A DNA stretch of 60,451 nucleotides, counting the filler, from Jimgerdemannia flammicorona (taxonomy: Eukaryota), in assembly GCA_003990765.1 (NCBI GenBank). It is 3 parts of 3 records of this genome, joined end to end, with 100 filler letters (N's around TTAATTAATTAA, not from the genome) between each part and the next. Parts side by side here need not be neighbours in the genome. Positions count along the whole stretch, not along the records: positions 20,187 to 40,270 come from RBNJ01001766.1; 2 more parts are not named here. One strand, given 5' to 3'. Below the pieces are notes generated by a model. That model made no database searches, was not told the origin of the DNA, and saw only the letters and a program-made list of their open reading frames with translations. The number at the start of each line of letters is the position of its first letter. Position 1 is the stretch's first letter. This document shows, piece after piece, positions 6,245 through 54,506 of the stretch. The translations under genes were made by a program, and so were the position numbers.

Positions 6245-6955
6245 ATGAACGACAAACCCATCGTTGAAAGTTCCTCCACGCTCAATAACCTCGCCGCCAT
6301 CGAAATGAAGGGCAGCTGCTATAGCTCGCAACCCGTACTCCCGAATCAGTATGCTGTCCGCGCAGGCAACCCTGGCCCGCTGGGCCTCTTCTCCTTCGCC
6401 CTTGTGACGTTTGTCCTCTCGGTCTTCAACGTCGTTTGGCCTGACGCCCCCAACAACGCCCTCATCGTTGGCGGCATCTTCTACGGTGGTATCACCCAAT
6501 TCATCGCCGGCCTCCTTGACTTCCAGCACGGCAACACCTTCTCCGCCACCACCTTCTGCTCCTTCGGCGCCTTCTGGACGGGCCAGGGCTTCCTCATGCT
6601 TCCCATCAACTTCAATGCTGCCTATGCCGGCGACACAGAGATGTGGGCACAGGGTCTTGCCGTCTACCACTTGGGCTGGGTCCTTTTCACCTACATGATG
6701 TTCGGTGCGAGCCTCAAGCTCAAGAAGGGGTCCGTCCTCCTCAGCATCCTGCTATTCCTTGTGGGCACCACCATGCTCATGCTCGCCGTGAACATCTGGA
6801 CAGGCAACACCATCCCCAAGAGAATCGCCGGTGTTACGGGTCTTTTGGCCGCTTTCGGTGCATGGTATGCTGGTCTTGCCGAAATCGTGGTCGAGGATGG
6901 CATGACCTTTCCCGTGGGTGCACATAACACCGTCGTTGTTCATGAGCGCGTGTAA
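6245..6955 (+). CDS. GPR1/FUN34/YaaH (SatP/Ady2) family acetate transporter, single exon, 236 aa
   Basis: GNPGPLGLFSFA signature, YGGITQFIAG, GNTFSATTFCSFGAFW; about six hydrophobic helices. Confidence 0.93.
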   Translation: MNDKPIVESSSTLNNLAAIEMKGSCYSSQPVLPNQYAVRAGNPGPLGLFSFALVTFVLSVFNVVWPDAPNNALIVGGIFYGGITQFIAGLLDFQHGNTFSATTFCSFGAFWTGQGFLMLPINFNAAYAGDTEMWAQGLAVYHLGWVLFTYMMFGASLKLKKGSVLLSILLFLVGTTMLMLAVNIWTGNTIPKRIAGVTGLLAAFGAWYAGLAEIVVEDGMTFPVGAHNTVVVHERV

Positions 6956-12648: not shown

Positions 12649-12751
12649 GATGTCGAAATGAGCTGAAAATCTGTCGGCGTCGAAATTAATTTATTAATTA
12701 TATCCTGTCCAAGCCACTCGAAAAAATGCCCATCGTCTCCTTTCGCCGTCC
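12649..12751. promoter_or_regulatory. Putative 103-bp bidirectional promoter between HUS1 and DHFR
   Basis: Divergent ATGs at 12648 and 12752; central AT-rich tract flanked by three TCGAAA motifs. Confidence 0.55.
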
Positions 12752-13469
12752 ATGCCTTCCCCCGTCAAGTTCACCCTCATCGTCGCCGCCACACAGGACC
12801 ACGGCATCGGCCGCAACAACAACCTGCCCTGGCGCCTGCCCCCGGACCAGGCTTACTTCAAGCGTGTGACCTGCCGCATCCCTCGCGACGCTACTTCAGC
12901 CGACGACCTGTTGGGCGCTACGAAGCAGAACGCCGTGATCATGGGGAGACTGACGTGGGAGTCGGTGCCAGTGAAGATGAGGCCGTTGACGGGAAGGTTT
13001 AATATTGTGGTGTCGAGAAATCCGGATTATTTGAAGTATGTTGAAACCCGCGCTTGCTTATTATTACTTGTCACACTGGCAATCGAGCAAGCGCGTCTGA
13101 TCCCACCCTCCCCCTAGAGACACCACTTTCCCCCCTGGCTCCGTTCGGATGGCGTCTTCCCTCTCTTCGGCTCTAGCTCTCGTAGACCCCTTACTCCACC
13201 CACGTATCTACATCATCGGCGGCGCGCAGATCTACCGCGACGCCCTAGCTCTCTCCGAGTGCGAGCACGTGCTCCTCACGCGGATTCACACACGCGTCGA
13301 GTGCGACACCTTCTTCCCGGACGTCGGGGCCGATCCGCGGTTCCGCCGCGCGAGCCACCATGAACTCGTGCGGTTCGTCGAGGAGGACTTGCCGGAGGGC
13401 GTGCAGATGCATAAGGGGTTGGAGTATGAGTATATGCTATTTTCGAGGGTCGAGGAGGTGCAGTTGTGA
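12752..13469 (+). CDS. DFR1: Dihydrofolate reductase, two exons (12752-13035, 13118-13469)
   Basis: LIVAA..GIG...LPW, NAVIMGRLTWES, RPLTGRFNIVVSR, IIGGAQIY, CDTFFP; the GT-AG intron 13036-13117 joins the frames. Confidence 0.96.
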
Positions 13470-20086: not shown

Positions 20087-20186
20087 NNNNNNNNNNNNNN
20101 NNNNNNNNNNNNNNNNNNNNNNNNNNNNNNTTAATTAATTAANNNNNNNNNNNNNNNNNNNNNNNNNNNNNNNNNNNNNNNNNNNN
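20087..20186. other. Artificial contig spacer N44-TTAATTAATTAA-N44
   Basis: Six-frame stop linker flanked by Ns; identical to 40271-40370. Confidence 0.98.
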
Positions 20187-20295
20187 GGGGAAAAAAAAAA
20201 AAAAGAACCAAGGGGAATAGGGAAGGGGTGGGGCACTGTGTATTATATAGAAGTTAGACAGGCATTTGGTTAATAAAGGATGGAGTCCAAGTGAC

Positions 20296-20338
<43 letters not shown>
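20187..20338 (+). mobile_element. 3' end of a poly(A) non-LTR retroelement inserted in the 5' LTR of Gypsy B copy 1
   Basis: G-rich tract, AATAAA and a ~40-nt A tail, followed directly by LTR U5 sequence matching 26586-26642. Confidence 0.7.
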
Positions 20339-20341
<3 letters not shown>

Positions 20342-22559
20342 TTCAAGATACAGAAATCCGACATACTTTCAAGAGTAAGCATCTGCTACATTACAACTTG
20401 GTGCCCATTGGCTGGTAATTTAAGATGAATCCCTCACTTTCAAGCTGAACAACAAAAAACCATTACTACCCAAGCAACTACACAAAGTGAGCCACAATAT
20501 CCAGACAAAATGGATATGAGACCACCAGTATTCCATGAGTATACCTCAGATGAATCAATCATTACCTTCATTGATGATTTCGAGCAGTATGCCACTGTAA
20601 GGACCCTGACAGCAGTACAGCAAGTAGCCCTCATGCCCTTCAGCCTACAAGGTCCTGCCAGAGCAGCATTCACAGCTACAACCTATATAGGAAATGATGC
20701 TAATGCTATACTGATAGTACAGAAGACCTGGCTTTGAAATATATATTATATAGATGAGATCAAGCAAGCTCTGAAGAATCAGCTCAATACAACATGCCAA
20801 GGAATGAGTGAGGATTCAAACACATTCTATACCAGAATTCGATATCAGATAATCTATATGGATTATGCTGCTGCTATTTGAGATCAAGTAGCTGAAGCAA
20901 CCTTCATAAAAGGAGTTCACCCAGAGATAGCCATGGCCATCCATTCATCACTAGTAGTCTTGGATCTGCTATAGAAGATCACCTATGCTCAGTGATATTG
21001 GACAGCCAGACACCCACAAGACCATACAATAGAAAGAGTCACAGGAGTCAGAATCAAAACACCCAAGGCAACTAGTGTGATCCCTACTATAATGATCAAT
21101 TGAAACACATCTCAGCCAAAAACTACAGAGTAGCAAAAGAACAGTGACCCTATGGAGGAACTTGCCAAGAGGTTCACTGAAATGACTGCTCACCTGAGAG
21201 ATGTGATAAAAGAAATCCAAGGAAGAAACCGCCACCCAGTTCAGAAGTTTGTTGCCATCTCAGATAAGAAGAAAGGTACCTACTATACCTGCAGAGAAGA
21301 AGGCCACTACTCCTATGAATGTATGAGCGAAACCAAGCATAAGGCTCAACCAAGTAATGCTACACAAAACAGAGAGCAGGCCAATACAATTACCTTCGAG
21401 GAAATTGGAGATTCTGATGAAGAAGAATGGGAGGCCTATCTTGCTCAGACTACCAAGAAGGATGTTCACAAGGAACCCTACAAGAGACCACCAGGAAGAC
21501 CCAAGAAGAACCCAGTAGAAAAGCAGATAGAAATGGTTACTGAAAGCCAAGCCAAAGAGATGGACCAAGATATGGAGCTGGAGCAAGCAGTTCAAGATAT
21601 TATCCAAGGAACTACCCTAGCCAGCAAAGGAGAAAAAGAAAAGAAACTTCATAAGACCAAGACTTTCAAGTATGATATCTTCAAGGACCTTAGCCAACAA
21701 AAGGTCAATGCAACCTTTGGTCAGCTCGTAGAAATCCCAACATTTAGACAACAAATGAGGTTTGGACTTGCCAAAACAACCAAGGAGCAAGGATAGAAGA
21801 TAACCAAGACCAATAATATTCAAGAGGACTCAGGAGAAGAAAGTGAAGACAATTGCAAAACCTCTGTCTATGCAATATGCCAAATCAAAGATAGAGTCTT
21901 TGAAGCCATCATTGATACTGGAGTAGGAGGATGTCTTCTCAGCAAGAAAGCAGCAGACTGCCTAGGCTGGGAAGTTGAAGAAGCAACCAAGTTGGTTTTT
22001 ATCACAGCAGATAGTACAAGAGCCACCCATCTGGGAAAGATCTGAGAAGTCTCCATCAAGATTGGAGAAGCAACCATCTCAGTAGATATAATCATAATCA
22101 ATGCCACCAACTATGACATCCTCATCAGCAATCAATAGCTTCACAAAGCCAGGGCAGTAATCAATCTCAATATCCAGAAGATACAAATCACCTACCAGGG
22201 ACAGAAGATACAAATTCCCATCAATGTCAACAAAGGAGTCTTGCCTAACATGGAGGAAGAAGAGAGCGAGCAAGAGGAAGCTTATATAGTGACTACTCTG
22301 AAGAAGAAAGTTGGACAGATGAGTGAAGAAGAATGGTATAAGAAGATCGTAAAAGGCTATATACCACAAGGAGTCTGTTCTCATGGAATCAAGATGTACT
22401 GTATGGAGCATGTCAATGATTGCTACCAGTGCACCATCAGAATCAAGAAAATCCATCAGGAAAGAAGACAGAAAGCTCTTGAAAAACAGGTCAGAGAAGA
22501 GAAGGAGGAGGAAGATGATGAACCACCAGTCCTCCTGGAGAATAGTGATGATGAAGAAG

Positions 22560-22980
22560 AAATTAAGGTCAAGATCTGAAGGACCCACCCTGATGCAGTC
22601 TTGCCAGAATACAAGTCAGAAAATGCAGCTAGAATGGACATCGCCACAGTAGAAGAAGCTGTACTAGAACTCCAAACAACCACCCTACTCACAACTGGAC
22701 TGGAGATAACTATCCCAAAGAATCATGTCAGGATCCTCAAGACAAGAAGCAGCCTGACCAGAAGCGAAATTATGATTGAAGGAGGAGTCATTGATTCTGA
22801 CTATACTAGAGAAATTCTGCTCATTGCTAGGAATCACAATCCTACAATCCCATTCCCGGTCAAGAAGAAGGACCAATTGGCACAGATGTTGATCTTTCCA
22901 ATCCTACAACCAAGGATCATAGAAGTCAAGAATTTGGAGGAAATGAAAAGAGGAAAGAAAAGACTTGGATCCACAGGAAG
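22560..22980 (+). pseudogene. dUTPase domain between protease and RT
   Basis: All five trimeric dUTPase motifs: AARMDI, TRSSL, GGVIDSDYTREI, DQLAQML, RGKKRLGSTG. Confidence 0.92.
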
Positions 22981-24491
22981 AAGAGCATTTACCAGTATCA
23001 AGATCACTGAACTGGAGCATAAGAAGGAGGAAATCACAAACAAGTACAGTTACATCATTGGAAATGAATTCCCACTTAAGGAGGAACTCAAGAAAATACT
23101 CCACGAATTCGAGGATGTCCTCACTATGGATTTCAAGGATATCAAGGGAAAGACCCCACACTACTATCATGAGGTAGATACCAGAGACACCAAACCAATT
23201 TACCAGAAGGCACGACCTGTCCCACCAGCCTACCAAGAATAGCTCAGAGAAGAAATCAAGCAGATGGAAGAAGCTGGTAATATCAAAGAAGCCAGCAGTC
23301 CCTGGTCTTCACCAGTTGTACTAGCTCTGAAAAAAGGAAGCAACCCTGGAGAATTCACCCCAAGACTCTGTGTTGACTACAGAAAGCTCAATGCAGTTAC
23401 CAAGAAGGATTGCCAACCACTGCCCCTCATCAGTGACATCCTTATAACACTGGGAGACAAAGCACAGTACTACAGCACCTTGGACTTATACTCAGGATTC
23501 CACCAAATCGGACTCACAGAGATGGCAAATGAAAAGTCAGCCTTCATCACCCCAGACAGAACCTACATCTACCTACAAATGCTGTTCAAGATGTGCAATA
23601 TACCAGCAAGCTTTTAGCAAATGATGAACAAAATCTTCTGCTATAACATAGGAAGATGGATGATGGTCTATATCAATGACATAATCATCTACAGCAAGAC
23701 ACCTGAGGAATACCTACAGTATATATGGCAGATAATGGAAAGACTGAGAAAGCATGGCCTGTATATCAAGCCCAAGAAATACAAATTTGCAGAAATCAAG
23801 ATCTCTTACCTTGGCCATGTTATCAATTAAGAGAAAACACACATGGACCCTCTCAAGATATAAGTAGTAACAGCATACCCAAGGCCCACTACTGTTACAG
23901 AAGCCCAAGCCTTCATGGAACTTGCCTCTTACTATTGTAGATTTATCAGAGGATTCTTCAATATTGCAGGTCCAATCTATGAACTCAACAAGAAGGACAC
24001 TAAATTCAACTGGACTGCCAGACAACAAAAAGCATTTGATGAACTCAAGGTCAGACTGACCCAGGCACCCATCCTCAGATGACCCAATTGGACCCAAGAG
24101 TTTATCCTTCAGACAGACACAAGTGTACAAGGACTAGGAGTAGTTCTAGCTCAAAAGAAAGACAAAAAAGAGTATATTATTACATACCTAAGCCAAGAAA
24201 CCCAAGGAGCTGAAAAAGAATACAAATCCTACAAGTTAGAATGCCTTGCAGTCATCTGGGCTATAGAAAAGTTCCACTACTATCTGGCTGGAAGACACTT
24301 CACCATTCAGATAGACCACTCAGCTCTCACCTAACTACTGACAACTAGACAACCCAAAGGAATCTATGTCAGATGGATAATGAAGTTACAAGTCTATGAT
24401 GTAACCATTGTATACTACCCTGGAAGAACAAATTCCAATGCAGATGCTCTCTCACGGACACCTTGAAACATCTCCAACCAACAAATCAATT

Positions 24492-25693
24492 ATGAATAAG
24501 GAGCTCTACTACAGAATCATCACATATCTGAGACAGCAAAAGATGCCCCAAAATCTGGAAGAATGGAAACAAATAATTATCAATAGAACATGGAAACAAT
24601 TTGAAACTGATAGACAAACACTAAAGAAAAGAAAACTACTAGTCATACCAGAATATAAGAAGGAGCAAGCAATGAAATCAGTATATAAACTTGGCCATCT
24701 AGGAGGAATGAATATATATGACAAGGCAAGAAGAATGATATGGTGGCCAGGAATGGAGAAAGATATCAGACAATTTGTCAAAACCTGCAACAAATGCCAG
24801 AAACAGAAATAAGACCAATAAAACCAAGCCCCAGGATCAGCACATATAGAACTAGTACTATTTGCCCACATAGCAATGGATGTAATTGGCCCTCTACCCT
24901 TGACCCTGACTGGTAACTGATATATCATTGTCATTGTAGACCTTTTTATGAAGTGGATAGAAGCAGGACCCCTCAAGGAAGCCAATGCACAGTTAATCAC
25001 CAATTTCTTCTACAAAGAAATCATCTGCCAGTTCAAGACTCTAATGCAAGTAACTATAGATAGAGGAACAGAATTTGTAAACCAGTTCTTTGAGGTTCTC
25101 TACAAGAAGTACAAGATCTAGCACATTCAGACTACAGCCTATCACCCTCAAGGAAATGGACAAGCAGAAAGGACCAACAAGACCCTCAAGAATGTTATTG
25201 CCAAGATCTGTAATAACTATGAAAACTGAGATCACTATCTGCCAATAGCATTATCTGCTCTCCAAGATATCAGATCACAAAGTACCCACTTTACCCCTTA
25301 AGAAATGCTGTTCAGAGAAGAAAGTTCTCAAGAAACCCTATCATCCAATGGGGATGCTGTATGGAAACATGTAGATGGAGAAATACAGAGACTACACCAA
25401 ATTAGGAAGAAGGCTGAGGATTACATAACAAAGGCACAGGCACTATAACAGAAGAATGCAGAAAAAACCCACAAACCCCTGGAGATTATCAAGATAGGAG
25501 ACAAAGTCCTGGTGTATCGAAACATAGTAGAAGCCTCATGGTCACAAAAACTGGAGCCCAAGTGGGAAGGATCTTACCTTGTGCAAGATATAAAAGGAAT
25601 CACCTTTTGGCTATGAAAACTCTCAGGCACAATCATCTCCACTACCATCTACCAAAACTGACTCAAGAAGTATCATGACCAGTCAACAAAGTA
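24492..25693 (+). pseudogene. Separate integrase ORF (MNKEL start), family B copy 1
   Basis: LGHLGG...CNKCQK, MDVIGPLP, TAYHPQGNGQAER, PKWEG; +1 frame relative to gag-pol. Confidence 0.85.
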
Positions 25694-26134
25694 ATACTAC
25701 TGCCCTCAGAATTACTAGCACAGCCCAGTGAGCCATTGAAAGACAGTGGTGTTCCACTGAGCCACCAACAATGGAAGAATCCTTTGACAGTATCCAGAGT
25801 ATAGTGCAAACACTTGTCACGAATCTCACATTTCAAGGTCTACCAGAACTGAACTGAGTTCTAGGAATACTTCAAGTTGGGACAGCTACTGAATTCAAGA
25901 CCAAAGATGGGAAAAGACGACTGGATCAGAGAATGTCAGCTCTCCTACACTCAGATCATAATTGCAAAAAGAGTATACAAGTTATTTAAAGATGACAAGT
26001 CAGCCTTAGCCCATTTCTGAGGAGTAACCCCAGGAGACTTTGGATATATCAAGAGACAATATTGGAAGGACATAATGATACAAATCACATAGTATAAGGA
26101 AATACAAATTGTAGAAGCCTGGGAATTTGAGTGA
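25675..26134 (+). pseudogene. Accessory ORF3 of family B (2-nt deletion relative to copy 2)
   Basis: Conserved with 53603-54064; motif AKRVYKLF...ALAHF.GVTPG. Confidence 0.7.
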
Positions 26135-26649
26135 ATAGGATGCTCCTGAGATGAATCACTTATTCAGGAGGAAGATATGATGGCTGATCTGAATTAGTAA
26201 TATGAAACAGAGGAATTAGACATTTGATCATGGTACCTGAATCTGATTTTCAATATAGCTTAGCCTCATAAATAGCAGCCATATTCTACAAAGTGCAGAA
26301 ACTTTAATGTTTATAAAGATTTAGGAGATGTTAGAATCTTCGCAATCAGTAAAATCTTAGCAGATATTAAAAGATTCAATATTTGCAAAATGAGCCATTA
26401 CTTAGCTACCTTATAGTTAGTAAAACTTATATAAATAACCCAGTATCTTAGAGTGAATAAAACCTCAGATCGAAATAGTTCAAAAGCAAAGAGATAGCAA
26501 AGAAACTAGTAAGCCCACAGGCAGATACACTTCGAACTTATCCACCCCTGTATCCCAAGGACTCCGAGGAGTCAGAGAAGATCAAGTATTCAAGATATAG
26601 AAATCCAACATACTTTCAAGAGTAAGTGTCTGCTATGTTACAATATATA

Positions 26650-28909: not shown

Positions 28910-31900
28910 TATAATGGTTCTAGTTTCTTTAAGAGGAAGTAGCTTAATCTGGAAGTTCTAGTTGGCCTAAAGTAGCTCAAAGAGATACTTAAAGGTTCAA
29001 GTATTCTTGAAGAATTTCTAAGAGAAAATATTCTGAGCTTTATTTAGGTTGAGAACAAGAATATTTATATATAGTCTAAAAGAAAGATCTAGCAGGATCT
29101 TGAAAAGAAAGAGAAATATCAAGAAATAGGTTCTTAGCAAATATGACTAATATAGTTCTACAATGTTCCAAAAGGTTCTATAACTAGCTAAGATAAGATA
29201 CTTGGTACCAAGGAAAGACAAGAGTATTCTAGTAGTGTCTGGGTGCTAAGAGAAGGTTTCTAAGCAAGTAGAAGGTAGCAGAACATAGTAGAATGTTTAA
29301 GAAATGACAAGAAAAGACTAACTAAAAGATGCAAAAATATATTAAGACTAAATATAACTGTGAAATTATTACATTTCTCTCTTCTTAAGAACCAATATTC
29401 TTATTGAGTTCTTAGATAATACAAGACTAGATATACTTAACCAAAATTTCTCAAACTTATATCAGTATATTGGCAGAGATTGGCTATTCTTATATAGAGC
29501 AAGAGGGCCTATTATCAGACTAACTAACTAGGAGGGGTTTAAACCTAGCTAGTAGTTTTATTTTGGTGAACTTCTTGTTTATTAAATGTTCTACTGATTT
29601 CAGAGTCCCAAAGTAAACTTCTGATGGATAAGGCACTGGTCATTATTATAGGTTATCAATAATCTAAGAAAGTCACTATAGGAATTGGACAATATATTTT
29701 GCCTTGAAGTCTTGAACTAGATCTTAAGAGTTCTTAAAGTTGACCAGTGGTTTTCAGTAGTATTATATTTAGGATAGCCCATCCACTTGACTAGGTATTC
29801 AGGACAGTAGTAGCAGATTTGTTTGTTGAGGATTTTCTCAGCTTCATACTCAATATGGTCTTTAATTATTACAAGGGTAGATGGCTTAGGAATTCAACCA
29901 GAGTAGGGCAGTAACTAGTTTCAGGTCTTAAGATGTGATATATGAAAGACTGGGTGTACTCCTATGGTTTCAGATAGCTTGAGGTAGTAAGAGGATACAG
30001 AGACTTGTTCAGTAATCTCAAAAGGTCCAATATACTTAGGTTGGAACTTGTTTGAAGGGTAGTTGACTTGAGATTATATCTTGAGGTTCTCAGTAGACAG
30101 TAGGACTTGATCTCTAACAATATAAGTAACATTACAGCATTTCTTATCAGTATACTTGGCTTGATGCTATTGAGCCTTCTGAAGATTCATAGTAGTAATC
30201 TTGAGTAGTTCATCCATTTTGTCTATAAGACTCTTGGTAGTAAGGACTTATATTTAACTGCTTTTCTTGAAAGGGAATAGACTTGTAGGGGTCTTGGAAT
30301 CTTGACTATAGAGTAATCAGAAAGGGAAAAGATCAGTAGATAATTGGATAGCATTATTGTATACAAACTCTGTATAAGTCAAGTAGTAGTCTCAATCATC
30401 TTGCTTATAAGAAACATAGTTTCTAAGTATTTGTTCTAGAGTTCTGTTCATGCACTTGGTTTGTCTATCAGTTTGTAGATAGAAGGCAGTAGATATAGCC
30501 AATTGAGTTCCCAGGGTCTTGAAGAGAGTTTGTCAGAAGTAACTAGTAAACTTGGGGTCACAATTACTGACAATCACTCATAATAGGCCATAGTGATAGA
30601 AGATAGACTTGAAGAAGATTCTTATAATCTCAGGTATAGTAGTATTAGTGGTAGTTGGTTCAGCAACCATAGTCTTGATCAGACAGTCAATAAATATAAT
30701 AATAGTATTAGCACCAGATTGAGTTCATGATAGTTGAGTTATAAAGTCTATGATAACTTACTTGAATTTCTTAGTGAGAATTGGCAGTGGTTGTAGCAAA
30801 CCAACTAGCACTTGGTTGGTAGACTTATTGTGCTGGTATATATCATAGCTAGTAACATAGTTCTTGATTTTCTTGATCATATTTGACCAATAGTAGCAGT
30901 ATTGGATGTTCTTAACAGTCTTCTCAATTCCAAGGTGACCAGTAAGAGGGGAGTCATAGTGTTCTTGCAAAACCTTGTAATGTAGATTCATATTTTTAGG
31001 TAGATAGACTTGGTCTTGATAATAGATCAAGTTATTCTTGACAGTATATATATCTTTGAGCTTGTTCAAAAAAACTCTAGTGGTGACTATGTCTTCTTTA
31101 TAAGCTTGCCTAATTTGGTCTAGAAATTCTGATACCAAAATAACTTATATGATTGTAGTGAGGTCAAGGTGTCTTGATAAGACATCTGGTACTATAAGTG
31201 TCTTGCCAGACTTGTAGATAATTGTTGGATTAAAGGTTTGAAGCTTGAGACTCTACTTGGCTTGTAGACATAACAGAGTAGATTGGATGTTGATGTACTT
31301 GAGAGATTGATAGTCAGTAATGATATCAAACTCAATACCTTTTAGGTAGTATTGCCAGTAATCTAGTGTATATATTATTGCCAGTAGTTCCTTCTTATGA
31401 GTGGCTAGCTTCTGTTTGGCTGGAGCCAACTTGCAGGACTCAAAAGTAATAAGATAGTATCCTTTGTCATTATCTTGTGATAGAACTGCTCTAATGATAA
31501 AATTCAATACATTAGTAGTGATCATGAATTTTAGGCCTTGATCTACATTATTCAGGACTAGAGCATGGGTCAGGTAGTTCTTGAGTTCTTGAAAAGCTTG
31601 TTGACAGAAGAGGTCTCAGGTATAGGGTACATAGTGGTCTGAGTGTGGGATCTTTCTCATGAGATTAGTCAGTGGCTTAGCAATGCCAGAGAAGTTTCTA
31701 ACAAAGTAGTAGTAATAGTCAGCTAGACTAAGAAAGGATCAGAGTTCTGTGAAGTTCAATAAAATGGGCCATTCTTCAATTGCTTCTATCTTATGTATGT
31801 AGGTCTACTTGAATTTCTTATATAGAGACAATATGGCTAAGGTATTTAAATTGTTTCTTGAAAAATTCACACTTCTTGAGCTTAGCATAAAGCTTGTGTT

Positions 31901-34900
31901 TTCATAGGATCTCTAGGACTATTTGAATGTATTTGAGGTGTTCCTCTTTAGTTGTACTAAAGATCAGGATGTTGTCAAGATATACCAATAGAAAAATAAA
32001 TAGTTGGTCCTTGAATATCTCATTCATCAGAGTCTAGAATGTGGCAGGTGTATTAGTGAGACTAAATACTAAGACCAGGAATTCATAGAGTCCAAAGAAG
32101 GTCATGAATACAGTCTTGGGGATATCTTCTGGCTTGATTCAGATCTGATAGTATTCTGACATGAGGTCTAACTTAGTGAAGTACTTGGTATTCTTAAGAG
32201 TATCAAAGATTTGATCAATCAAGAGTAGCAGATAGTGGTTCTTAACAGTAAGCTTGTTGAGTACATAATAGTCTATGCATATTCACAGGGTACTATCCTT
32301 TTTCTTGATGAATAAGACTGATAAGCCATAAGGAGATTTGCTTGGCTAAATAGCTTCTCATGTAAGTAGTTTTTCTAGTTCCTTCTTGACTGCTTCAATT
32401 TCAAGTAGTAATATACAGTATATGTATTTCTTGAGTGGTATAGTTCCTGGGATCAGTTCAATTTCATAATCAACTTCTCATATAGGTAGTAGATCAGGTA
32501 GCTTGTCTGGAAAGATATCCTTGAATTCTTCTAGCAGTAACTTGATACTTTTATTGACTAATAGTCTCTTGTCTTATTTCTTGAGGCAGACCATTATAAT
32601 AAAGATATATATTGTCTTCTTGAGCACTCTCTTATACTATATGACTGATAGTATTATAATCTGGGTCTTGCTCATGGTCTTGTCTGTCTTGATAGTGATG
32701 TTGGCTCTATCTTAAAGTAAGGTGACTTTATTCTTATATCAATTGATGTCTGGGTTGTGTTTTATAAGCCAGGGTTTTCCTAGGATCAGATTATGATCTC
32801 CTAGTGATACAATCTCAAAGTCTACTCATTCTCAATATTTCTAGATCTTAATGAGTAGTTTAGCAGCAATTGACTTAATGGGGTACAGTATACTATCTAT
32901 AGTGACTATACTGTTATTTTGGATATAAGCTTAGTGAGGATCTTGAGGCTTTCAATGAGATTCTGATTGATGAAGTTTCCTATAGCTCTACTGTCTATGA
33001 GTATTTGAACATCTTTTCCTTTGACTAGGTCTTTGAAAATAAGCATAGCTTAAGTTTGATTTTTAGTAAGACTTGCTACTTGATCAGTACTACCAAAATC
33101 TTTTTGATCTCATTTGGTTTTGAAAGTTCTTAGACTTCTGTAATCTTGAGTTGACTGGCTTTTTTTAGGATTATTTGTGCAACTTAGTCTCCTTCCTTGA
33201 CTGTATAGTTTTGATTCTTCTAGTTGATAAGCAGAACTTAAACTTGTCCTTGAAAGTCTGAGTTAATAATACTAGCATCTACATCTAAATAATGTTTGAT
33301 ACTGAGTTCTGATTATAGTGCAATTCTGGCATAATGTCCTTCAGGATATTGAACTGCAATTCCAGTAGGCACCAGAGTTTGGCCCTTAGCTGAAATAGTG
33401 ACTTATTTGACAGAGTGTAGGTTAAGACCAATAGCTCCTTCTGTTTGATATTGAGAGACCTGGGCCTTCAGGTGAAGCTTCTTGATCTTGAGCTTGGATT
33501 GACTAGTAGTAGGGTTGACAGATATATCTTTGGACAATATGGTAACTGGTCTAGAAGGTTTGCTAGTCTTCTTAGGATATTTAATTATAATATGTCCTAT
33601 TTGGTAACAGAAGAAACAGGCTCTAGATTTCTTCAGACAGTTCTTTTCTTCAGAGGTAAGCTTAGTGTTCTTTTTATTTATAGTATCTAAGTCTATTGGT
33701 ACTGGGCCAACTGTCCTTGGTTGGTTTCTGTAGTGGTTCTTGAAGTAGTTCTTCTTGCAGTATTCTGGTTTAAAGCAGTTATCAAAGATGATAATATCAA
33801 ACCTATCAGTGATCCTCATAGCTTCATTAAGACTTTGTGGCTCTTCTAGCTCAATCTTGACTTGTATGTTTCCTTTCAGATCTCAGATATAGCAGTCTAT
33901 CTTTTTATTCTCTATTATTACTGATAGTTCAAGTAGAATTGATAGGAATTGTATATTATAGTTTTATATAGACTTGAGTTACTTGATATTTACTAGCTTA
34001 TCTCTGACTAGCTTAGTAGTATTAGCAGGCTTGAACTGCCTATGAAAAGCTCTCTTGAAAGCTTCTCAATCCTTGATTTATATATATAAGTATATAAATA
34101 TAGTCATAATATGATTGTGCTACCAAATGGCTGCATTCTCTCAGAGAAGTGTGGCAGCAAATTAGACTTGCATATCTTCTTCCATTCTTGTGAGCTCAAA
34201 GTATTAGTCTAATTGGAAGATTCATATATCTGTAGATAGTCCTTCTTAGTGACTATCAAAGACATCTGGCTTGAGTGGCTTAAAACTAACTAGTACTATA
34301 GCAGAATATGATGTACTTATAGTTCTTGTTTTCTGCTGTTCTAGTTATACTTGAAGTACTTGGATTTGGTAAGCCATAATAACAATCATATTCTCTATAT
34401 TGGCTTGTGGTTCTCCTGCTTCTCCAGAGAGGTCTGGCTAGTAGGTTGACTCTTCATAGCTCATTTTAGGTTCATGTGACTAGTTGTGACTGATTTTTGA
34501 ATTTGTATGAGGTTTCTTAATAAGATAAGATATAATGATACTACTGCTACTAAGTATAATAGTTCTAGTTTTTTTAAGAGGAAGCAGCTTAATCTAGAAG
34601 TTCTAATTGATCTAAAGTAGCTTGAAGAGATACTTAAAGATTCAAGTATTCTCAAAGAATTTCTGAGAGAAAATATTCTGAGCTTTATTTAGATAAAGAG
34701 TAAGGATATTTATATATGGTCTGAAAGAAAGATCCAGAAGGATCTTGGAAAGAAAGAGAAATACCAAGAAATAGGTTCTTGATAAAGATGATTAATATGG
34801 TTCTACAATGTTCCAAAAAGGTCTTTAACTAGCTAAGATAAGATGCTTGGCACCAAGAAAGATAAGAGTATTCTAGTAGTATCTAGATGCTGAGAGAAGA

Positions 34901-35017
34901 TTTCTAAGTAAGTAAAAGATAGTAGAACATAACAGAATATTCAAGAAATGATAAAAAAAGACTAACTAAAAGATACAAAAATGTACTAAGACTAAATATA
35001 ACTGTGAAATTATTACA
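28910..35017 (-). mobile_element. Chromovirus-type Ty3/Gypsy (family D), full length but degenerate
   Basis: LTRs 28910-29373 and 34555-35017; minus-strand PPT AAGAAGAGAGAAA next to 29373; gag knuckle CFFCYQIGH, protease LIDS(R)A, RT YLDNILI, RNase H and integrase in one frame, chromodomain EYEAEKIL...EYLVKWMGYP at ~29700-29855. No clear TSD. Confidence 0.92.
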
Positions 35018-40270: not shown

Positions 40271-40370
40271 NNNNNNNNNNNNNNNNNNNNNNNNNNNNNN
40301 NNNNNNNNNNNNNNTTAATTAATTAANNNNNNNNNNNNNNNNNNNNNNNNNNNNNNNNNNNNNNNNNNNN
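40271..40370. other. Artificial contig spacer
   Basis: N44-TTAATTAATTAA-N44. Confidence 0.98.
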
Positions 40371-43300
40371 CTCCCCCAGCCAATGTCCCGGCATCTGCAC
40401 AAATCCCCCAGCTTGCCCTACATTGTAACACTCCTCACAATCAAAATGGCCACCATCCACCAGATGCCCAGTGCGAAAATTCAGCATGACATTCCTCCGC
40501 AGCATTCGCCACCACACCACCCAGTACTTGGGAGGAAGCCATCTCTGCACCTCAGCACTCCAAGACCAGATACCCGCCCAGTCCCACTCCTCACCGATCC
40601 CTGCCCCCTGCCAGCCACTTGGTCTAAGGTCCTGGCCAAGACCCTGCTGACACTCCACCTCATCTCCAAGATTAAATGTTTCAATTGGAGCACCCCCCAG
40701 CAGCAGTCCATCCCATCGCCACATATCAGGCCCCCACACTCCCTCCCCCTCATTGCCTTGCCAGCGCAGACCAATCCGGTGGGTGCCATCCACCACCCCC
40801 CACCAAAAGCCCTTGAACCGCAGCCTCCTACTTCCATTCAGCCCTACCAGAGCGAGCAGATCTCTGGAGGACCCTCGAGGGGAGGTCCTCATCTCCCACA
40901 CCTTCTGCAGCAGCGGCACCCAACTCCCACCCTGTAGTTCAGCAGCTCTTTTCAACCACCAGGCATGTAAGCAGTACAACTTCTTAGGGAAATCTATAAG
41001 GCCAAGACCCCCCCTGACCACTGGTGTTGCAAGAGTATCCCAATCAATCTGGGACCTCCTCCCTGCCCAAATCCAATCTCTTGCTATCTTCGTCAGCCTC
41101 TTCACCACCCAAGCTGGGAAGTCCAGGTGATAGGCCATGTACCACAGCTTGGGGAACCAGTACACATTCAGAATTGACACCCTCCCTGCCAGAGAGATAT
41201 GGTGGCCTCCCCAGCTGTGAAGGGCCTCCCCCCAAATGGTCACCCTGCTCTCCCACCACCCCCATGGCAAGACAGAACCATATACTGAAAGGAAGATGCC
41301 CAGGTATCTCACCACCTCACCCGTGGGGACAATTGTTCCAATGACATCCCCACCCACTAGCCCATTTCCAAGCACCATTGTCTCACACTTATGCCAGTTG
41401 AGCTTCACCCCTGAGTATGCCTCATACCATTCCACTGTCTCCTTAAGAGCCTCGACATCTGCCACAGACCCAAGTCTGACCACCATATCATCAGCAAAGG
41501 CCCCCACCTTCCACACCAGACCATATATAGAGAGCCCTGCCACCTTCTGGCGAATTCTGTCCATCAGTGGCTCTAACAAAAGGGCATAGAGAATAGGGGA
41601 CAGAGGGTCCCCCTGAGGAACTCCTCTATCTAAGGGGAATGCCAGACCTCAGTGACCATTACACATCAGCGCCACTTGACTACTCTCCAGCAGACTCAAC
41701 ATAGAAGTCTGAAATCCTGGTGGAACACCAATTCGGTCCAACATCTTGCCCAGCCAAACCCGTCATACTTGGTCATAGGCCTTCTCCTGGTCCAAAAAGA
41801 CCAACCTTCCATCCAGACCACAAGTCCGGGCCCCTTCAATCACACCATGCACCCATGCAGTCCCATCTCTTATAAGCCTATCTCCAACAAAGCCTCGCTG
41901 CTCCTCCCCCAGCACCTGTTGGACAACTTTCTGCAGTCTTGCAATGATCACCTTAGTCACCATCTTCCTGTCCATATCCAGTAGCATGATTGGTCTCCAA
42001 TTCTTCCAATCTTCCCTCCTCCCCTTGTCTTTGTACAATAAGGCCACCAGTCCGAGGTCCTGCTCTCCAACCCACTCACCACTCTGAAGGACATGGTCAC
42101 AGAGAGCAGCCATCTCACCCAAAATGCCCGGGACCTTCACCATCTTCTTCCAGAAGTCCCATGGCAACCCATCCTCCCCTGGTGCCATTCCAAGCTTAGT
42201 GGCTGCAAGGACACTCTGGATCTCCTCTCCTTGCACCAGTAAGATCAAGTCACCCAGTCCGTCTACTTGCAGCAGTCCCCACTCTTCTAGTGTATCTGCT
42301 ATCACCCCCCCCTCAGCACCCCCTTCTCCCTTGCTCCACAAACCCTGCCATCTCTCCTTCAATACCCCTAAGATTTGTTGTGTGCCATGCACCATGTTGC
42401 CCTCAGCATCTAGGATCCCCTCCCACCTATGTCGCACCCTCCTAGCCTGAAGGAGTCTTGATAGGTACCTAGTAGGCCTCTCACCCTCCTCAAGCCCCTG
42501 CCACCATAGCCTAGCAGCCATACCACGCATATGAGTCTCCTCCTCATCTCTCAGTACCTGCTTCAGCTCCAATATCTCCAACTTAACCCACTCTATCCTC
42601 CAATCCTCCACCCCATCAGAAGCAAGTAGATCTGTCCAATCCATTTGTAGTCTTCTCAGCCTGCCAGAAGCACACCTTGTGCACTCCTTCCTCCACCTCC
42701 CAGCAGCCTTACCAGCTCCCCCCCAATAGACCCTTGCAGCCTCTTTCAGTCTCATCCAATGGACCCCCACCGACAAACCCTCCTGCCTCCAAATAAGAAC
42801 CTTTGCCTGAACATCCTCCACCCATGAGTCCCACAACCCCTTCTTAGCCAGCAGGGAGGAGTTAAGGCACCAATGTCCGGGTCCATCTCCACTCCCCCCA
42901 AACTGCCCCTGCCCCAACAGTCCCTAGTGATCAGACCATGGGCACCACTCCACCCCCAGCATCTTCCAAACATCCAACCCCCAACACTCGGCCATCAGAA
43001 TCCAGTCAATTCTCGTATCTAAGCCATTCACCCAATGTGTGTAGACCCTGGAGTCGCCCCACCTGGATCTGCCCATATCCCCTAGGGAACTCAACTTCTC
43101 CACCTCCTCCCATGCATCCAGACCCCCACTTCTCTCCCCTGCACTCCTCCCTCCATCAGTTCTGTCTAGACGCTGATCCCAAACCATGTTAAAGTCTCCA
43201 CTGAGAACATCAACTCCTTCCTCCAACAGAATACCCTCCTCCAATAGTTCCTCAATCCACACAATCCTCTCTCCCCTAACTGCAGGACAGTAGCAAGAGC

Positions 43301-43607
43301 CAACCCTCACCAGCTCCCACCCCGGCTGCAGCCAATCACCCCAGACCAAATGATCACCCCAGTTCTTGATTCCCTCCAAGTCTCCTCTACCCTTCCTCAC
43401 CAGAATCGCCACTTTTCCAAACCAAGCAGTAGCCCCTCCCCATTCCCTAGTCCACTCCACATGATCACCCTCATCCTCACACCGAACATCCTGTAGTAAA
43501 AAGAGATCAGCCTCCAATCTCTTGAGCCAAGTAAAAATGCTTTTTCGCCTCCCAGATCCCTGCAACCCATTCACATTCAACGATAAAATGTTAGTTGTAC
43601 TGTTCAT
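40371..43607 (-). pseudogene. LINE ORF2: AP endonuclease plus reverse transcriptase
   Basis: ILSLNVNGL, GDFN, RIDW, SDH; KNWRPIMLL, LDQEKAYD, GVPQGDPLSP, AFADD. One frame with a few nonsense codons. Confidence 0.93.
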
Positions 43608-45700
43608 AAGGAATAATGTTGAAAGAGTGATCCCACCATCTACAAGTCCACATTCTGCTCCTCCTGTACCAAGTCCGAGTCATGCTCAGCAGCCAGTTCC
43701 CTTTCCCCAGCATCCTGTACCTCCAGCCCTTTCAGAAGTTCTACCATTGCCCCATCTTCTTTCTCCTCAAAGTCCTCATGATACTCCATGCAAGCCTCCC
43801 ACCAGAACTGCAGACCACGATGCTCAGCCCAACAGTAGGCTGCCCACTCACCCGCAACCACTACCAGCTCTGCCTTCCTTGCCTCATCAACCTCATACCC
43901 CTCCTCCTCCAAGAGGATTGCCAGAATCTCCACCCCCAGCACCTCCATCACCCCATCGCCACGCAGAATACTGCTCAGTGCTCCTCAGGCATTACCTGCA
44001 GGTCCACATCCCCCAATGCCTCAGCTGCAAGGTTATCCATCACCTTGCTCATCCACAGCAAGTTCCCCACCTCCTTCCCTCCCGGAGTCCCCGGCTGCCC
44101 TGCATCCAACATCGTGGTGTCAGCACCTACACTGGCAGCCTCATCCCATGTCTCCTCAGGGACGTCCACCAGCTCATCCTCTCCAACCGCCACCACCTGG
44201 CCCCCTTTCGCCACATCTGGGACACCAAAGGTAACATGCTGGGCCCCCTGCATCTGTATATCCTCCACCACCACTCTCCGCCCCACTGGGCCCCTCCTGA
44301 CTAGAGGGGGGAGAGTGCTATCAGACTCCTCCTCCCAAACTTCAAAAGTACCATCGGCATAGGGATCTCTGCCCAGCACCTTCGCAGCCCATTCCTCTGT
44401 CACCACTGCCTCCTTCCCTCCTTCACCAGCCCATACACTGGCTTTGACGCCTCCAGACTCCTCAGCCCCATCCACCTTCCTCTTCTCCCCTCCTGTCATA
44501 CTTGTCAAGAGCTCCCTCTGCCTCTTGCGGCCCTGGGCCCTCTCCCACTGCTTCTTATCAGTGCGCACATGCTTTCCATTCACAATCTCCAGATGCGTCG
44601 ACTCCTCAAATAGCTTCCAGGCTTTTGTCCTCCTCTCCACAGCCCCACCCAACTCCTCCAGCGCCTCCAACAAGTCCTCCTCCTCTTCTTCACTCCCCTT
44701 CACCCTCGACACCTTACAGACGAATGCCCCCCACATCAGTACCGAGGGCCAGTCACTCATCTTCCCTGTGGCCTCCTTCCCTGCCAGCCAGATCCTGACA
44801 TCGACATTGCCCGTCCTGATTGTAGTCTCCTCCCACACCTGAAATCCAATGTCCACCACATCACCCTACTCCACCATCACCTCCTCCACCCTCTTCCTAG
44901 TCTCCTCCTTAGACACTGTGGGCACCCCCCTCACCAGAAGCTGCACTACCCTGGGGTCCCACCTCAAGCACCGCACCATGGGTACCACTACCTCTCCAAC
45001 CACAACTCCAGTCTTCAGGGCCTCATCCAGTGGGCCCACTTCCTCAAAACCCACCCCCTCATGCCCTTCAAGAACTTCACTGAGGCAGCCCCCACCACTT
45101 GCTTTGAAATCAGCCCCAGAACCATCCTCGCCATCACCACCAAGCCCCGGAAGCACAATGTGACCGTGAACTCCGAAATCGACTTCTTGAGCAATGGGGC
45201 CACCACCAGCCCCATTACACCATCCGCCAGGTCCCCCTCCCGCATCGGGAACCCCTGACCCCCCTGGCCATCAGCCGTCACATCTCTTTTTTTTTCACGA
45301 TTCACTGTCACACCCCCATCAGCAGTCCCACCCCCAGCCACAGCTCCTCCAGACCCTACACTCATACCTCCAACCTGAGGACCACCCCCCCTCTCAAGGC
45401 TCGCCTTGCCCTTCCCCACAGCAGCACCAGCCCTGTCTCCAGCTCTGTCTCCAACTGGCCATCCACTCTCCTTCACCTTGTCAGCAAAGCTGGTGGGACC
45501 AGTCCTTCCCCTGTTACCACCCAATACTGGTCCTCCTCCAGAGCCCTCTCCACCTTTCAACCCTCCAAAGGCCCCCATCCCCAGGCCAAAACCCCTCCCC
45601 ACCTCCTGCCAGCCGAAAGCCCCAGCTCCCCCTGACCCAGTACACCCGTCGGAACTCTTGCTTGAAGACATATTGATAGTACCTTCTCTCCTAGTAGTAT
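40371..45700 (-). mobile_element. LINE (L1/Tx1-like), ORF1 plus APE-RT ORF2; 3' end cut by contig edge
   Basis: ORF2 motifs as listed in the next feature; G-rich ORF1 fragments 43640-45671 with stops and frameshifts. 5' boundary approximate. Confidence 0.9.
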
Positions 45701-47329
45701 CGAAAACTGTTGCTTGAAGTCTTGTGTAATGGGAATTGTACCGGAGAAAGGTATTGGTAATGATATCATCTCTGATAGAGTAGTTATCTAGAAAGAGTGA
45801 TTCTTGGATTACATCTCTCTGTTCATTTACATATGTAATAATATGTTGAAACTATATTACTATTCTACAAAATAGTATTATCTTTCTTATATTCTAGATA
45901 TAGTATTAGTGAGCAGAGAAGAGGTATATTGTCTTTGCTTTTATCAGATTCACTGTTAGTATATCTTTAGTAGTTTATGGTATTATATATTATAGAGTTG
46001 TAGTATACTGTCAGCTATTGTTTTTTTTTGCTTATACTTAGGAGGTAGAGTTATTAGTTCTATCTTAAGAGTTGTAGAGTATATTCTCCAGTCTCTTCAT
46101 TATAGTTGAAGAAGTAGGTATAAATGTGGATTAATACTTATACCAGTGGTCATTATTCCAATAGATCTCATATACAGTTATAAACTATTATAAGTTCATT
46201 GGTAAGGTTGGTATAGTGATCAGAGTTGACAGAGTTAACAGAGATTCTTGACTAGAGATCATATCAGTGTCTCAGAGATTGTTGTCTTCTACTTTATTAT
46301 TATCAAACTAAATTATATTATAGATATCCTTTATGATATATTCAACTTAAGATATTTGTAGGATATAATCATCTGGGTGTAGGAAGGATCTGTTTGTAAT
46401 TTGGACATATTTAATATATTTGTGATTAAGTTCTTATACTATGTCATTGATTTGACTATAGGTCAGGGTAACAACCATTTCAGTAGTAGTAACTCAGAGA
46501 TAGGAAATAAAGATACTATACTTATAAAAGAGTTCATAGTATTTGTGGGTAATGAGTTTCTGATATTAAGACATTTTAGTAATATCTATATCATAGTTAT
46601 AATTAATTATATCTTCTAGAAGATGGCTGATCTGATAGTAGTTTGATATTTGTCTGATTCAGTGAACCTCACTAAGTATGTTTAGAGTATTTTATCAGAC
46701 TTCTACAAAATAGAGAGATACATACTAGACTATTGGATATTTATAAGAAGTAGGGGTGCTGTGGCTTAGTTGATAATAATATTTCAAATTTTAGTATTGA
46801 TATAGTTGTAGACTTCAGTAGTTATAGCTGAGTTTATATTTGAGAGTTATAGTTGTTATTTGTTATGGTTCTCTATTTTGATATACTGTATATTTGATAT
46901 ATATGTTTTCAGTCCTAATTGGTAAAATTCTATTTTTGTAAATCTTATGTTCTGTGACTTTGGTTTGACTCAACTTTGTAATCTGACAGATGATTTCTGA
47001 ATTTATTCTAAGGGTGATATGTGATTTCAGTGGCTTAGAGATTATATACTTATAATCAAAGCTTGTACAGAGTCAATCAAAAGGCTATAAGAAAAACTTC
47101 ATATACTTTTGCCTAAGAATAATCAATCTGCCTCTAGTTCACCTTTATCTGTTATAACTATTACAACTGAAATTATTATAGATTATATATCTCTATCTCT
47201 AAATAGAACATTTTCTTACAGATTAAGTATGAGAAAAAGGAGTATTATCTAAGAAATATTCTACAATATATTGTAGATACTTAGTTAGCTAATCTAATCA
47301 TTATAGATAGTTCTTAGCTAGTTTACAAT

Positions 47330-53900: not shown

Positions 53901-54506
53901 GAGTGCACAAGTTATTCAAAGATGATGAGCCAGCTCTAGTGCATTTTCAAGAAGTAACCCCAACTGACTTTAGATATATCAAGAGACAACATTGGAAGAA
54001 TATCATGGCACAAATCGTACAGTACAAGGAGATACAAATCATGGAAGCCTGGAAGTTTGAGTGAATAGGATACTTTAGAGATAAATCACCTATTCAGAAG
54101 GAAGTTGTAATGGTTAATCTGAATTAGTAACATGAATCAGAGGAATTAGACATTTGATCACAGTACCTAAATCCAATTTCCAAATATAGCTTAGCCTTAC
54201 CAATAGCAGTCATATTTCACCAAGGGCAGAAACTTTAACATTGGCAAAGTTTTGGGAGATGGTGAAATCTTCACAGATGTTAAAAGATTCAACACTGGCA
54301 GAAAATGACTCATTACTTAGCCACTTTATAGTTAGTAAACTTGTATAAATAACCCAGTATCTTAGAGTAAATAAATCTCAGATTGAAATAGTTCAAAGTA
54401 AAGAAAAAGCAAAGAAACTAGTAAGCCTGTGGGCAGATACACTTTGAACTCACTCAAGATACAGAAATCCAATGTACTTCCAAGGTTAAGCATCTGCTAC
54501 ATTATA
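47910..54506 (+). mobile_element. Ty3/Gypsy family B copy 2, complete with both LTRs and 4-bp TSD
   Basis: LTRs 47910-48346 and 54106-54506; TSD ATAG at 47906-09 and 54507-10; PBS-like TGGTGTCCATTG at 48350; dUTPase ~50512-50930; RT YVDD near 51620; colinear with copy 1. Confidence 0.96.
53603..54064 (+). pseudogene. Accessory ORF3 of family B (154 codons, frame intact, internal stops)
   Basis: ATG 53603 overlaps the integrase end and is in frame with ORF 53837..54064; internal stops are TGA/TAG of the CGA/TGG-decay type. Confidence 0.75.

Follow-up and report, generated by a model that had tools for sequence, protein, structure and literature searches.

A Ty3/Gypsy lineage with integrase in a separate reading frame: stop/start contact at the junction and the case for reinitiation

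Relics of families A and B in the window

The stretch of DNA analysed here, referred to as the window, is 60,451 nucleotides (nt) long, filler included, and comes from the Endogonales fungus Jimgerdemannia flammicorona (assembly GCA_003990765.1). It contains relics of two families of Ty3/Gypsy long terminal repeat (LTR) retrotransposons, called A and B, in which integrase lies in an open reading frame (ORF) of its own whose start codon touches the stop codon of the preceding ORF1, just past the end of ribonuclease H (RNase H). In copy 1 of family B, on the plus strand, the ORF1 relic extends from 20510 to 24499 and encodes gag, protease (PR), dUTPase, reverse transcriptase (RT) and RNase H, as determined by translation, Pfam and tblastn to ORF1 of the metagenome relative L001 (L denotes such relatives throughout). 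Translation remains in a single frame across 20429-24499 with zero frameshifts, and Pfam on this frame finds protease, dUTPase (PF00692, 4.4e-19), RVT_1 and RNase H, as the preliminary description of this locus had claimed. The codons of the motif that ends RNase H, …NSNADALSR, are in phase with position 24440, and the frame closes at a terminal TAA at 24497-24499. The integrase ATG, at 24492-24494, is in the +1 frame, with the ORF1 stop starting at +6, producing the plus-strand overlap ATGAATAA (24492-24499; context tATGAATAA) at precisely the positions first given for it. The integrase relic then continues from 24492 to 25694 on the same strand, 400 codons and a stop by translation, with nine premature stops and no frameshift, and its closest relative is the integrase of L008, at 79% identity. 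The 3' end of integrase is overlapped by the relic of a third frame, ORF3 (25636-26131, plus strand), identified in two frames by tblastn with ORF3 of L008 at 66-73% identity.

Copy 2, also on the plus strand, has the same organization, with an ORF1 relic in one frame from 48476 to 52450 (terminal TAA 52448-52450), an integrase relic from 52443 to 53610 whose start has decayed to ATA (52443-52445), and an ORF3 relic in one frame from 53567 to 54061 (68% identity to ORF3 of L008). The stop/start offset equals that of copy 1, again as previously noted, and a 23-nt deletion near 53225 breaks the integrase frame. The copies are 83% identical (20337-26538 versus 48288-54450), with ORF1 indels of only 3, 6 and 3 nt and no indel at the junction, and they differ by 915 transitions and 148 transversions (86% transitions), with both C/T and G/A changes. 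The premature stops are mostly TGA, TAG or TAA. The transition bias and the stops are consistent with cytosine deamination or a process like repeat-induced point mutation. The LTRs of copy 2 (47910-48245 and 54106-54453) are 86.5% identical, the 3' LTR of copy 1 (26178-26643) matches the 5' LTR of copy 2, and the 5' LTR of copy 1 is mostly N-masked or missing; two 44-nt runs of N (20087-20130 and 20143-20186) lie where it would be expected, followed by a poly-A run at about 20290-20330.

Family A is cut by the window edge, which lies inside the element. The end of its RNase H occupies 1-467 of the plus strand, with a premature TGA at 405-407 and a terminal TGA at 465-467, and its integrase relic runs from 464 to 1680 in the -1 frame relative to RNase H, with a decay frameshift at about 830-880. 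The integrase ATG at 464-466 overlaps the terminal TGA as ATGA, an arrangement that the preliminary description had reported correctly. Another family A copy, comprising the 3' part of integrase and downstream sequence, lies on the minus strand at 57536-59301 (79-85% identical), and its junction would fall past the window end. The window copies of both families are dead relics, and their intactness had initially been overstated: ORF1 of family B copy 1 has 17 premature in-frame stops ahead of its terminal TAA in addition to the nine in integrase, and a premature plus-strand TGA in the RNase H frame at 24464-24466, 28 nt ahead of the ATG and read as CAA in copy 2, had been overlooked.

The junction and the integrase start among relatives

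A scan of metagenome contigs identified 80 loci, of which 28 have both an integrase match from residue 1 and upstream DNA; three pairs of loci share identical junctions, leaving 25 distinct junctions among the 28. In every one of the 28, the stop codon of the RNase H frame lies -5 to +9 nt from the integrase ATG, and in 26 the frame is undisrupted. Junctions in the -1 frame have the stop at +2 (ATGA, nine loci), at -2 (TAATG or TGATG, seven loci), at -5 (one locus) or at +8 (ATGGAnnTAG, three loci), and those in the +1 frame have it at +6 (ATGAATAR, four loci) or at +9 (two loci); the types found among intact relatives include ATGA, UAAUG and AUGAAUAA. Family A is of the ATGA type and family B of the +6 type, the octamer type of its copy 1 being shared with L001, L008, L012 and L015. 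The +1 offset is found in L001, L008, L012-15 and family B, and the -1 offset in the other loci and family A. Two loci, L007 and L045, are decayed and carry premature stops, yet they retain the local layout (stop at +9 and ATGA, respectively). The preliminary description had preferred a multi-cistron design to decay, and the recurrence of the arrangement in 28 of 28 related loci from elsewhere, which exceeds chance, supports this; RNase H and integrase in one open frame, looked for in the intact relatives, was found in 0 of the 28 in-clade loci.

The upstream ORF of the relatives is open for 2910-5235 nt in six loci, reaching 1746 codons. Four intact ORF1s that were scanned (1281-1746 amino acids (aa)) have protease, dUTPase, RT and RNase H in addition to a CCHC knuckle, with dUTPase (PF00692, E 3e-28 to 2e-33) between PR and RVT_1 as in copy 1, and Pfam finds no integrase domain in these four. 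The integrase ORFs of intact relatives are 408-435 aa in length. Ahead of its ATG, the integrase frame stays open over a median length of 69 nt (range 3-201), roughly the chance level, and in L034 the overlap available to a possible frameshift is only 7 nt. An intron bridging RNase H and integrase was considered and rejected, as no GT occurs at 24455-24520 of family B copy 1; moreover, in L001, L008, L015 and family B the RNase H-end motif and the ATG are just 34 nt apart, leaving no room for an intron in these four lineages.

Conservation of the start codon is equally evident in protein databases. A search with the family B integrase returned 90 close matches (E <= 2.4e-42, 34-74% identity over the best local alignment), below which identity drops sharply to 28%. 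Sixty-five of the 90 are full-length relatives, defined as at least 389 aa, and 59 of these open with M[NDE]xx[LIVFMTY] as their first residues, which corresponds in position to MNKEL of family B. Four more have the same Met behind an extension of 7-18 residues picked by the gene caller, and of the remaining two, one shares the starting Met but with a variant motif, and the other begins further in. The alignment of 27 stand-alone integrases has the Met as an invariant column, which substantiates the earlier claim that it is conserved, and ATG is present at the integrase start in 28 of 28 loci, being decayed (ATA) only in window copy 2 of family B. Fused RT-RNase H-integrase proteins reach at most 156 bits at 24-36% identity, in a search limited to longer proteins, versus 300-634 bits for most full-length split integrases. 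Among 1.84 billion representatives, stand-alone proteins align from the Met (their residues 1-6), and no protein longer than 700 aa aligns ahead of query residue 49, that is, 30 residues past the Met; no alignment to fused relatives covers the first ~30-48 residues that follow the Met.

In a maximum likelihood tree of integrase, 27 split-type rows form one group apart from all 12 fused outgroup rows, with support of 100/99, and fused forms occur only outside the split clade. In 16 of 26 outgroup loci the integrase frame carries an RT or RNase H-end motif, and six have fewer than 90 codons open upstream. The tree requires 11 changes among eight labels (six junction types, 'unclear' and 'fused'), against a minimum of seven. 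Within the split clade both frame offsets arise more than once, and stop/start adjacency is never lost. Because the frame and the exact overlap change freely while contact between stop and start is kept, the constraint appears to act on the contact itself.

By these comparisons, families A and B almost certainly represent a distinct Ty3/Gypsy lineage in which integrase forms a cistron by itself. The split clade has the Ty3/Gypsy order of PR, RT, RNase H and integrase and flanking LTRs, and it has the dUTPase between protease and RT that characterizes dUTPase-bearing Gypsy elements. It departs from Ty3/Gypsy in that integrase is outside the Pol polyprotein in 28 of 28 loci and at the three window junctions, and from chromoviruses in having no chromodomain at the integrase C-terminus; the precomputed Pfam annotation of the 90 clade matches includes no chromodomain (PF00385) and lists rve and Integrase_H2C2.

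Fourteen relatives, with mutual BLASTP similarity, encode an ORF3 of 115-240 aa that overlaps the 3' end of integrase, mostly in the +1 frame (for instance L009:5951-6652, L001:7129-7704 and L029:1315-2004, with 11 further loci). The start of ORF3 is not coupled to the integrase stop, its first ATG falling at positions that range from -191 to +53 of that stop. This scatter indicates that mere overlap of neighbouring genes does not, in these elements, yield a tight stop/start coupling. ORF3 matches no Pfam family. AlphaFold models it with confidence as an all-helical domain (mean pLDDT 80), for which Foldseek against the PDB returns nothing at E <= 0.001 and VIA-align only generic long-helix matches (Z <= 5.6).

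RNA structure and the route to integrase

Folding of sliding 36-nt segments against shuffles was scanned at 19 loci, 12 with the stop at or before +2 and seven with the stop at +6 to +9. For the 12 junctions with an early stop, the segment at -39 to -4 is on average -5.6 kcal/mol beyond shuffles, as compared with a background of 0.23 +/- 0.55, and six of the 12 beat all of their own background windows there. The seven junctions with a later stop have no upstream signal, and all seven have instead a hairpin at +27 to +62 (mean -5.8), none of them exceeding the 5th percentile of its own background. That the predicted hairpin is upstream with a stop at or before +2, and downstream only with a stop at +6 to +9, ties the structure to the stop codon. 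The window families conform to this pattern. Family A retains an upstream hairpin, predicted at 420-453 of the plus strand with its 3' end 10 nt ahead of the ATGA (-16.0 kcal/mol, z -2.7), and family B has none upstream, its copy 1 preserving a decayed remnant of the downstream hairpin at 24530-24549 (plus strand), where L008 has an intact 6-bp G/C stem and copy 1 carries two G-to-A changes in the 5' arm. The stems differ in sequence and register between lineages. One 8-bp helix is paired in 70.5% of cells, versus 26-45% when slid, with four pairs changed on both sides, and the upstream hairpin of the TAATG subclade has two-sided changes in five of 11 pairs.

The best overall explanation of these observations is a separate-ORF lineage expressed by termination-coupled reinitiation, to which we assign a probability of roughly 0.6. 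ORF1 encodes a gag-protease-dUTPase-RT-RNase H polyprotein with no gag/pol frameshift, followed by integrase as ORF2 and then the small ORF3. After termination on ORF1, the 40S subunit of a fraction of ribosomes would remain on the RNA and start anew at the integrase AUG, yielding a free, sub-stoichiometric integrase in place of a Pol-integrase fusion. The hairpins beside the junction would probably hold the post-termination subunit in place. For reinitiation after a long ORF, the accessible text of one review gives a stop and start within about 20 nt of each other and out of frame (PMC10275272). The split clade has this spacing and phase in 26 of 26 undisrupted junctions, together with a conserved AUG, and such anatomy moderately favours termination-reinitiation as the mechanism. 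The fuller proposition, namely a free integrase of low abundance made by reinitiation, with two interchangeable hairpin solutions and a protein that joins the particle or complementary DNA (cDNA) in trans, stands at about even odds.

Several observations weigh against this interpretation. The dead window copies contribute nothing on function, and the relatives come from metagenome contigs. RNAalifold on 24 junctions returned 0 pairs and hence no clade-wide consensus structure, and the whole 106-nt junction folds mostly no better than shuffles (z -3.7 to +1.9), the signal being confined to short local segments. The 8-bp helix was read off the same sequences on which it was scored, inflating its advantage over the slid controls. 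The downstream hairpin starts some 25-30 nt past the stop, a greater distance, to our knowledge, than that of any element acting on a terminating ribosome. The preliminary description had likened the ATGA junction to the AUGA overlaps of viral termination-reinitiation; the anatomy fits that analogy, but UGGGA, the calicivirus-type motif 1 of termination upstream ribosome-binding sites (TURBS), occurs in only one of 28 junctions when 120 nt upstream are scanned. To these points must be added the slippery heptamers considered below.

Programmed frameshifting, -1 in some lineages and +1 at the stop in others, could fuse RNase H to integrase and leave the AUG as incidental or as a back-up. The offsets of +/-1 resemble those of retroelement gag/pol junctions, every +1 junction has its stop inside the integrase frame, such that a +1 shift at the stop is formally possible, and seven of 18 -1 junctions contain an X XXY YYZ heptamer in the RNase H frame (CCCTTTC at -21 in L029, L031, L033 and L037, CCCTTTT and CCCAAAG in L036, CCCAAAC in L016 and GGGAAAT in L040), 15-33 nt ahead of the integrase ATG. 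Over the final 60 nt preceding that ATG the heptamers are enriched about 25-fold relative to the ORF body (8/460 versus 5/7362 codon positions, or 17.4 versus 0.7 per 1000, with 1.1 per 1000 (1/920) in other frames), which favours frameshifting in part of the clade. They are missing, however, from 11 of the 18 -1 junctions, from all +1 junctions and from window families A and B, and one subclade supplies four or five of the eight. None of the seven junctions has a downstream fold that beats shuffles (z -1.3 to +1.2), and in loci of the L029 group this heptamer makes up the 3' arm of the upstream hairpin, of which it may be a by-product. Frameshifting also leaves unexplained the invariant AUG, kept even in the +1 junctions, although shifting at the stop would bypass it there, the pinning of the stop to -5..+9 in both frames, and the 7-nt overlap of L034, and we consider it improbable. 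The heptamers may be by-products of the hairpins or may provide a second route to integrase in some lineages.

Integrase might also be translated independently of ORF1 termination, from a spliced or subgenomic RNA or by internal ribosome entry, with the stop/start contact reflecting compaction. Retroviral env and spumavirus pol are expressed from spliced or internally initiated subgenomic RNA, a conserved AUG suits any mechanism of initiation, the flanking hairpins could equally be part of an entry site or processing signal, and ORF3, which overlaps integrase uncoupled, must itself use some other expression route. Yet compaction does not predict a stop within -5..+9 in all 26 undisrupted junctions, which represent about 20 lineages with repeated switches of type, when the start of ORF3 ranges over more than 200 nt, the strongest point against internal entry or a subgenomic RNA, and the side of the hairpin correlates with the position of the stop. 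Independent initiation is an unlikely account. A further view is that the frame offsets are simply decay, that is, random indels in old copies with no design. The window copies are indeed heavily mutated (the 17 and nine premature stops of family B copy 1), and decay indels do exist, in the family A integrase and as the deletion in the integrase of copy 2. Copy 1, however, is free of any other frameshift over ~5.2 kb of coding sequence, it shares with copy 2 both the offset and a junction free of indels, and the layout recurs in intact relatives, whose open ORF1 reaches 1746 codons and whose integrase measures 408-435 aa; decay has a negligible chance of being the explanation.

Known systems, implications and neighbouring elements

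The split clade shares with canonical Ty3/Gypsy elements (Metaviridae), including the chromovirus in the window, the LTRs, the CCHC gag, the order PR-RT-RNase H-integrase, and an integrase with an HHCC zinc finger and a DDE core. The difference is that canonical integrase is cut from Pol, whereas in the split clade it is a cistron of its own and gag through RNase H form one ORF. A dUTPase between protease and RT is described, in the accessible text of two papers, for basidiomycete PosPlaTy3-5 and the bdelloid rotifer elements Juno, Vesta and TelKA (PMC2864245, PMC5408684). By those text descriptions, these elements have single or gag plus pol ORFs with integrase inside pol, in contrast to the split clade; the bdelloid Gypsy elements resemble it in carrying extra ORF3s of unknown function (PMC2864245, PMC5408684). 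An Atlas cluster of 407-aa integrases is mostly rotifer, which is recorded as a lead only.

Among viruses, close parallels exist in filamentous fungi. The CP/RdRp junction of the victorivirus HvV190S (AUGA) and the UAAUG reinitiation of hypoviruses share with the split clade the fungal hosts, the types of overlap and the lack of motif 1 (PMC5972666). Victoriviruses use structure in the 32 nt upstream in place of motif 1, and the non-LTR element SART1 requires a downstream structure, according to the same partially available source (PMC5972666). The structured 32 nt of victoriviruses, immediately upstream, have their counterpart in the predicted -39..-4 hairpin found when the stop is at or before +2. 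These are, however, double-stranded or single-stranded RNA viruses with a predicted pseudoknot, and the split clade was compared with them by hairpins only. Calicivirus and influenza B TURBS likewise follow a long upstream ORF, with stop and start a few nt apart and out of frame, and their downstream product is described as a low, fixed fraction (PMC10275272, in part); the 18S-complementary UGGGA that defines them sets them apart from the split clade.

A close parallel among retrotransposons lies outside the LTR class. SART1 has a UAAUG stop-start coupling between ORF1 and ORF2 that was reportedly demonstrated experimentally by Kojima et al. in 2005. As far as its available descriptions go, SART1 shares with the split clade a two-cistron retrotransposon RNA, a stop/start overlap and a downstream structure like the predicted +27..+62 hairpin; it differs in being a non-LTR element, in having the junction between a gag-like ORF and pol instead of between RNase H and integrase, and in its experimental demonstration, the split clade being described here from sequence analysis. 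In the accessible parts of two reviews of reinitiation, the only retrotransposons named are SART1 and LINE-1, both non-LTR (PMC10275272, PMC5972666). A separate or stop/start-coupled integrase ORF in an LTR retrotransposon was not found in the literature searched, in which subscription journals and Repbase were thinly covered. On the reinitiation reading, the split clade would combine a familiar class of element with a translational device known from other systems, placed at a junction where no earlier description of it was found.

By the textbook account, retroviruses and LTR retrotransposons obtain integrase by cutting it out of Pol, which ensures that it is packaged and sets its ratio to RT. 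In the split clade the dosage of integrase could be set separately and, because gag through RNase H constitute a single ORF, integrase is the only protein expected in reduced amount. A free integrase could still reach the reverse-transcription complex. If the proposed mechanism is correct, integrase would have to join the particle or cDNA in trans, for which the clade-specific ~30-48 residues at its N-terminus might serve. Such a mode of assembly is not known to be described for LTR retroelements, and the junction would be the first of the reinitiation type between cistrons of an LTR retrotransposon, in a lineage present in an Endogonales fungus and widespread in soil metagenomes. It would also be a natural fungal case of reinitiation after an ORF of 1300-1750 codons; we know of few natural eukaryotic examples of reinitiation after a very long ORF, all of them viral except SART1 and LINE-1. 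The many natural variants of the junction lend themselves to sequence comparison and reporter assays. Pipelines that annotate on the expectation of a single Pol ORF will wrongly score these elements as broken.

The chromovirus spans 29.7-33.5 kb on the minus strand, between a pair of LTRs (28910-29373 and 34555-35017), and its RNase H, integrase and chromodomain are in one frame at 29738-31792, where a single tblastn segment to a chromoviral Pol (P0136 residues 618-1327) runs from 31792 to 29738 through the chromodomain, in keeping with the original reading of this element. At 33103-33516 of the minus strand it has a stretch resembling dUTPase (27% identical to the corresponding region of ORF1 in L001, E 4e-10), by which two unrelated Gypsy lineages of the window would encode dUTPase. 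The minus-strand region at 40-46 kb was considered as the chromovirus and rejected, as a LINE-like element lies there. This element (40323-45851, minus strand) has a GC content of 52-54%, is strongly C-skewed, and carries an endonuclease-type GDFN motif and RT; its ORFs are 250-440 codons long, its decay is much milder than that of the Gypsy copies, and runs of N at 40271-40314 and 40327-40370 adjoin it. Host genes are found at 6245-6952 and 12698-13469. The first is GPR1/FUN34/YaaH acetate-transporter-like and 100% identical to a Jimgerdemannia flammicorona protein at NCBI, and the two exons at 12698-13469 look, by eye, like dihydrofolate reductase.

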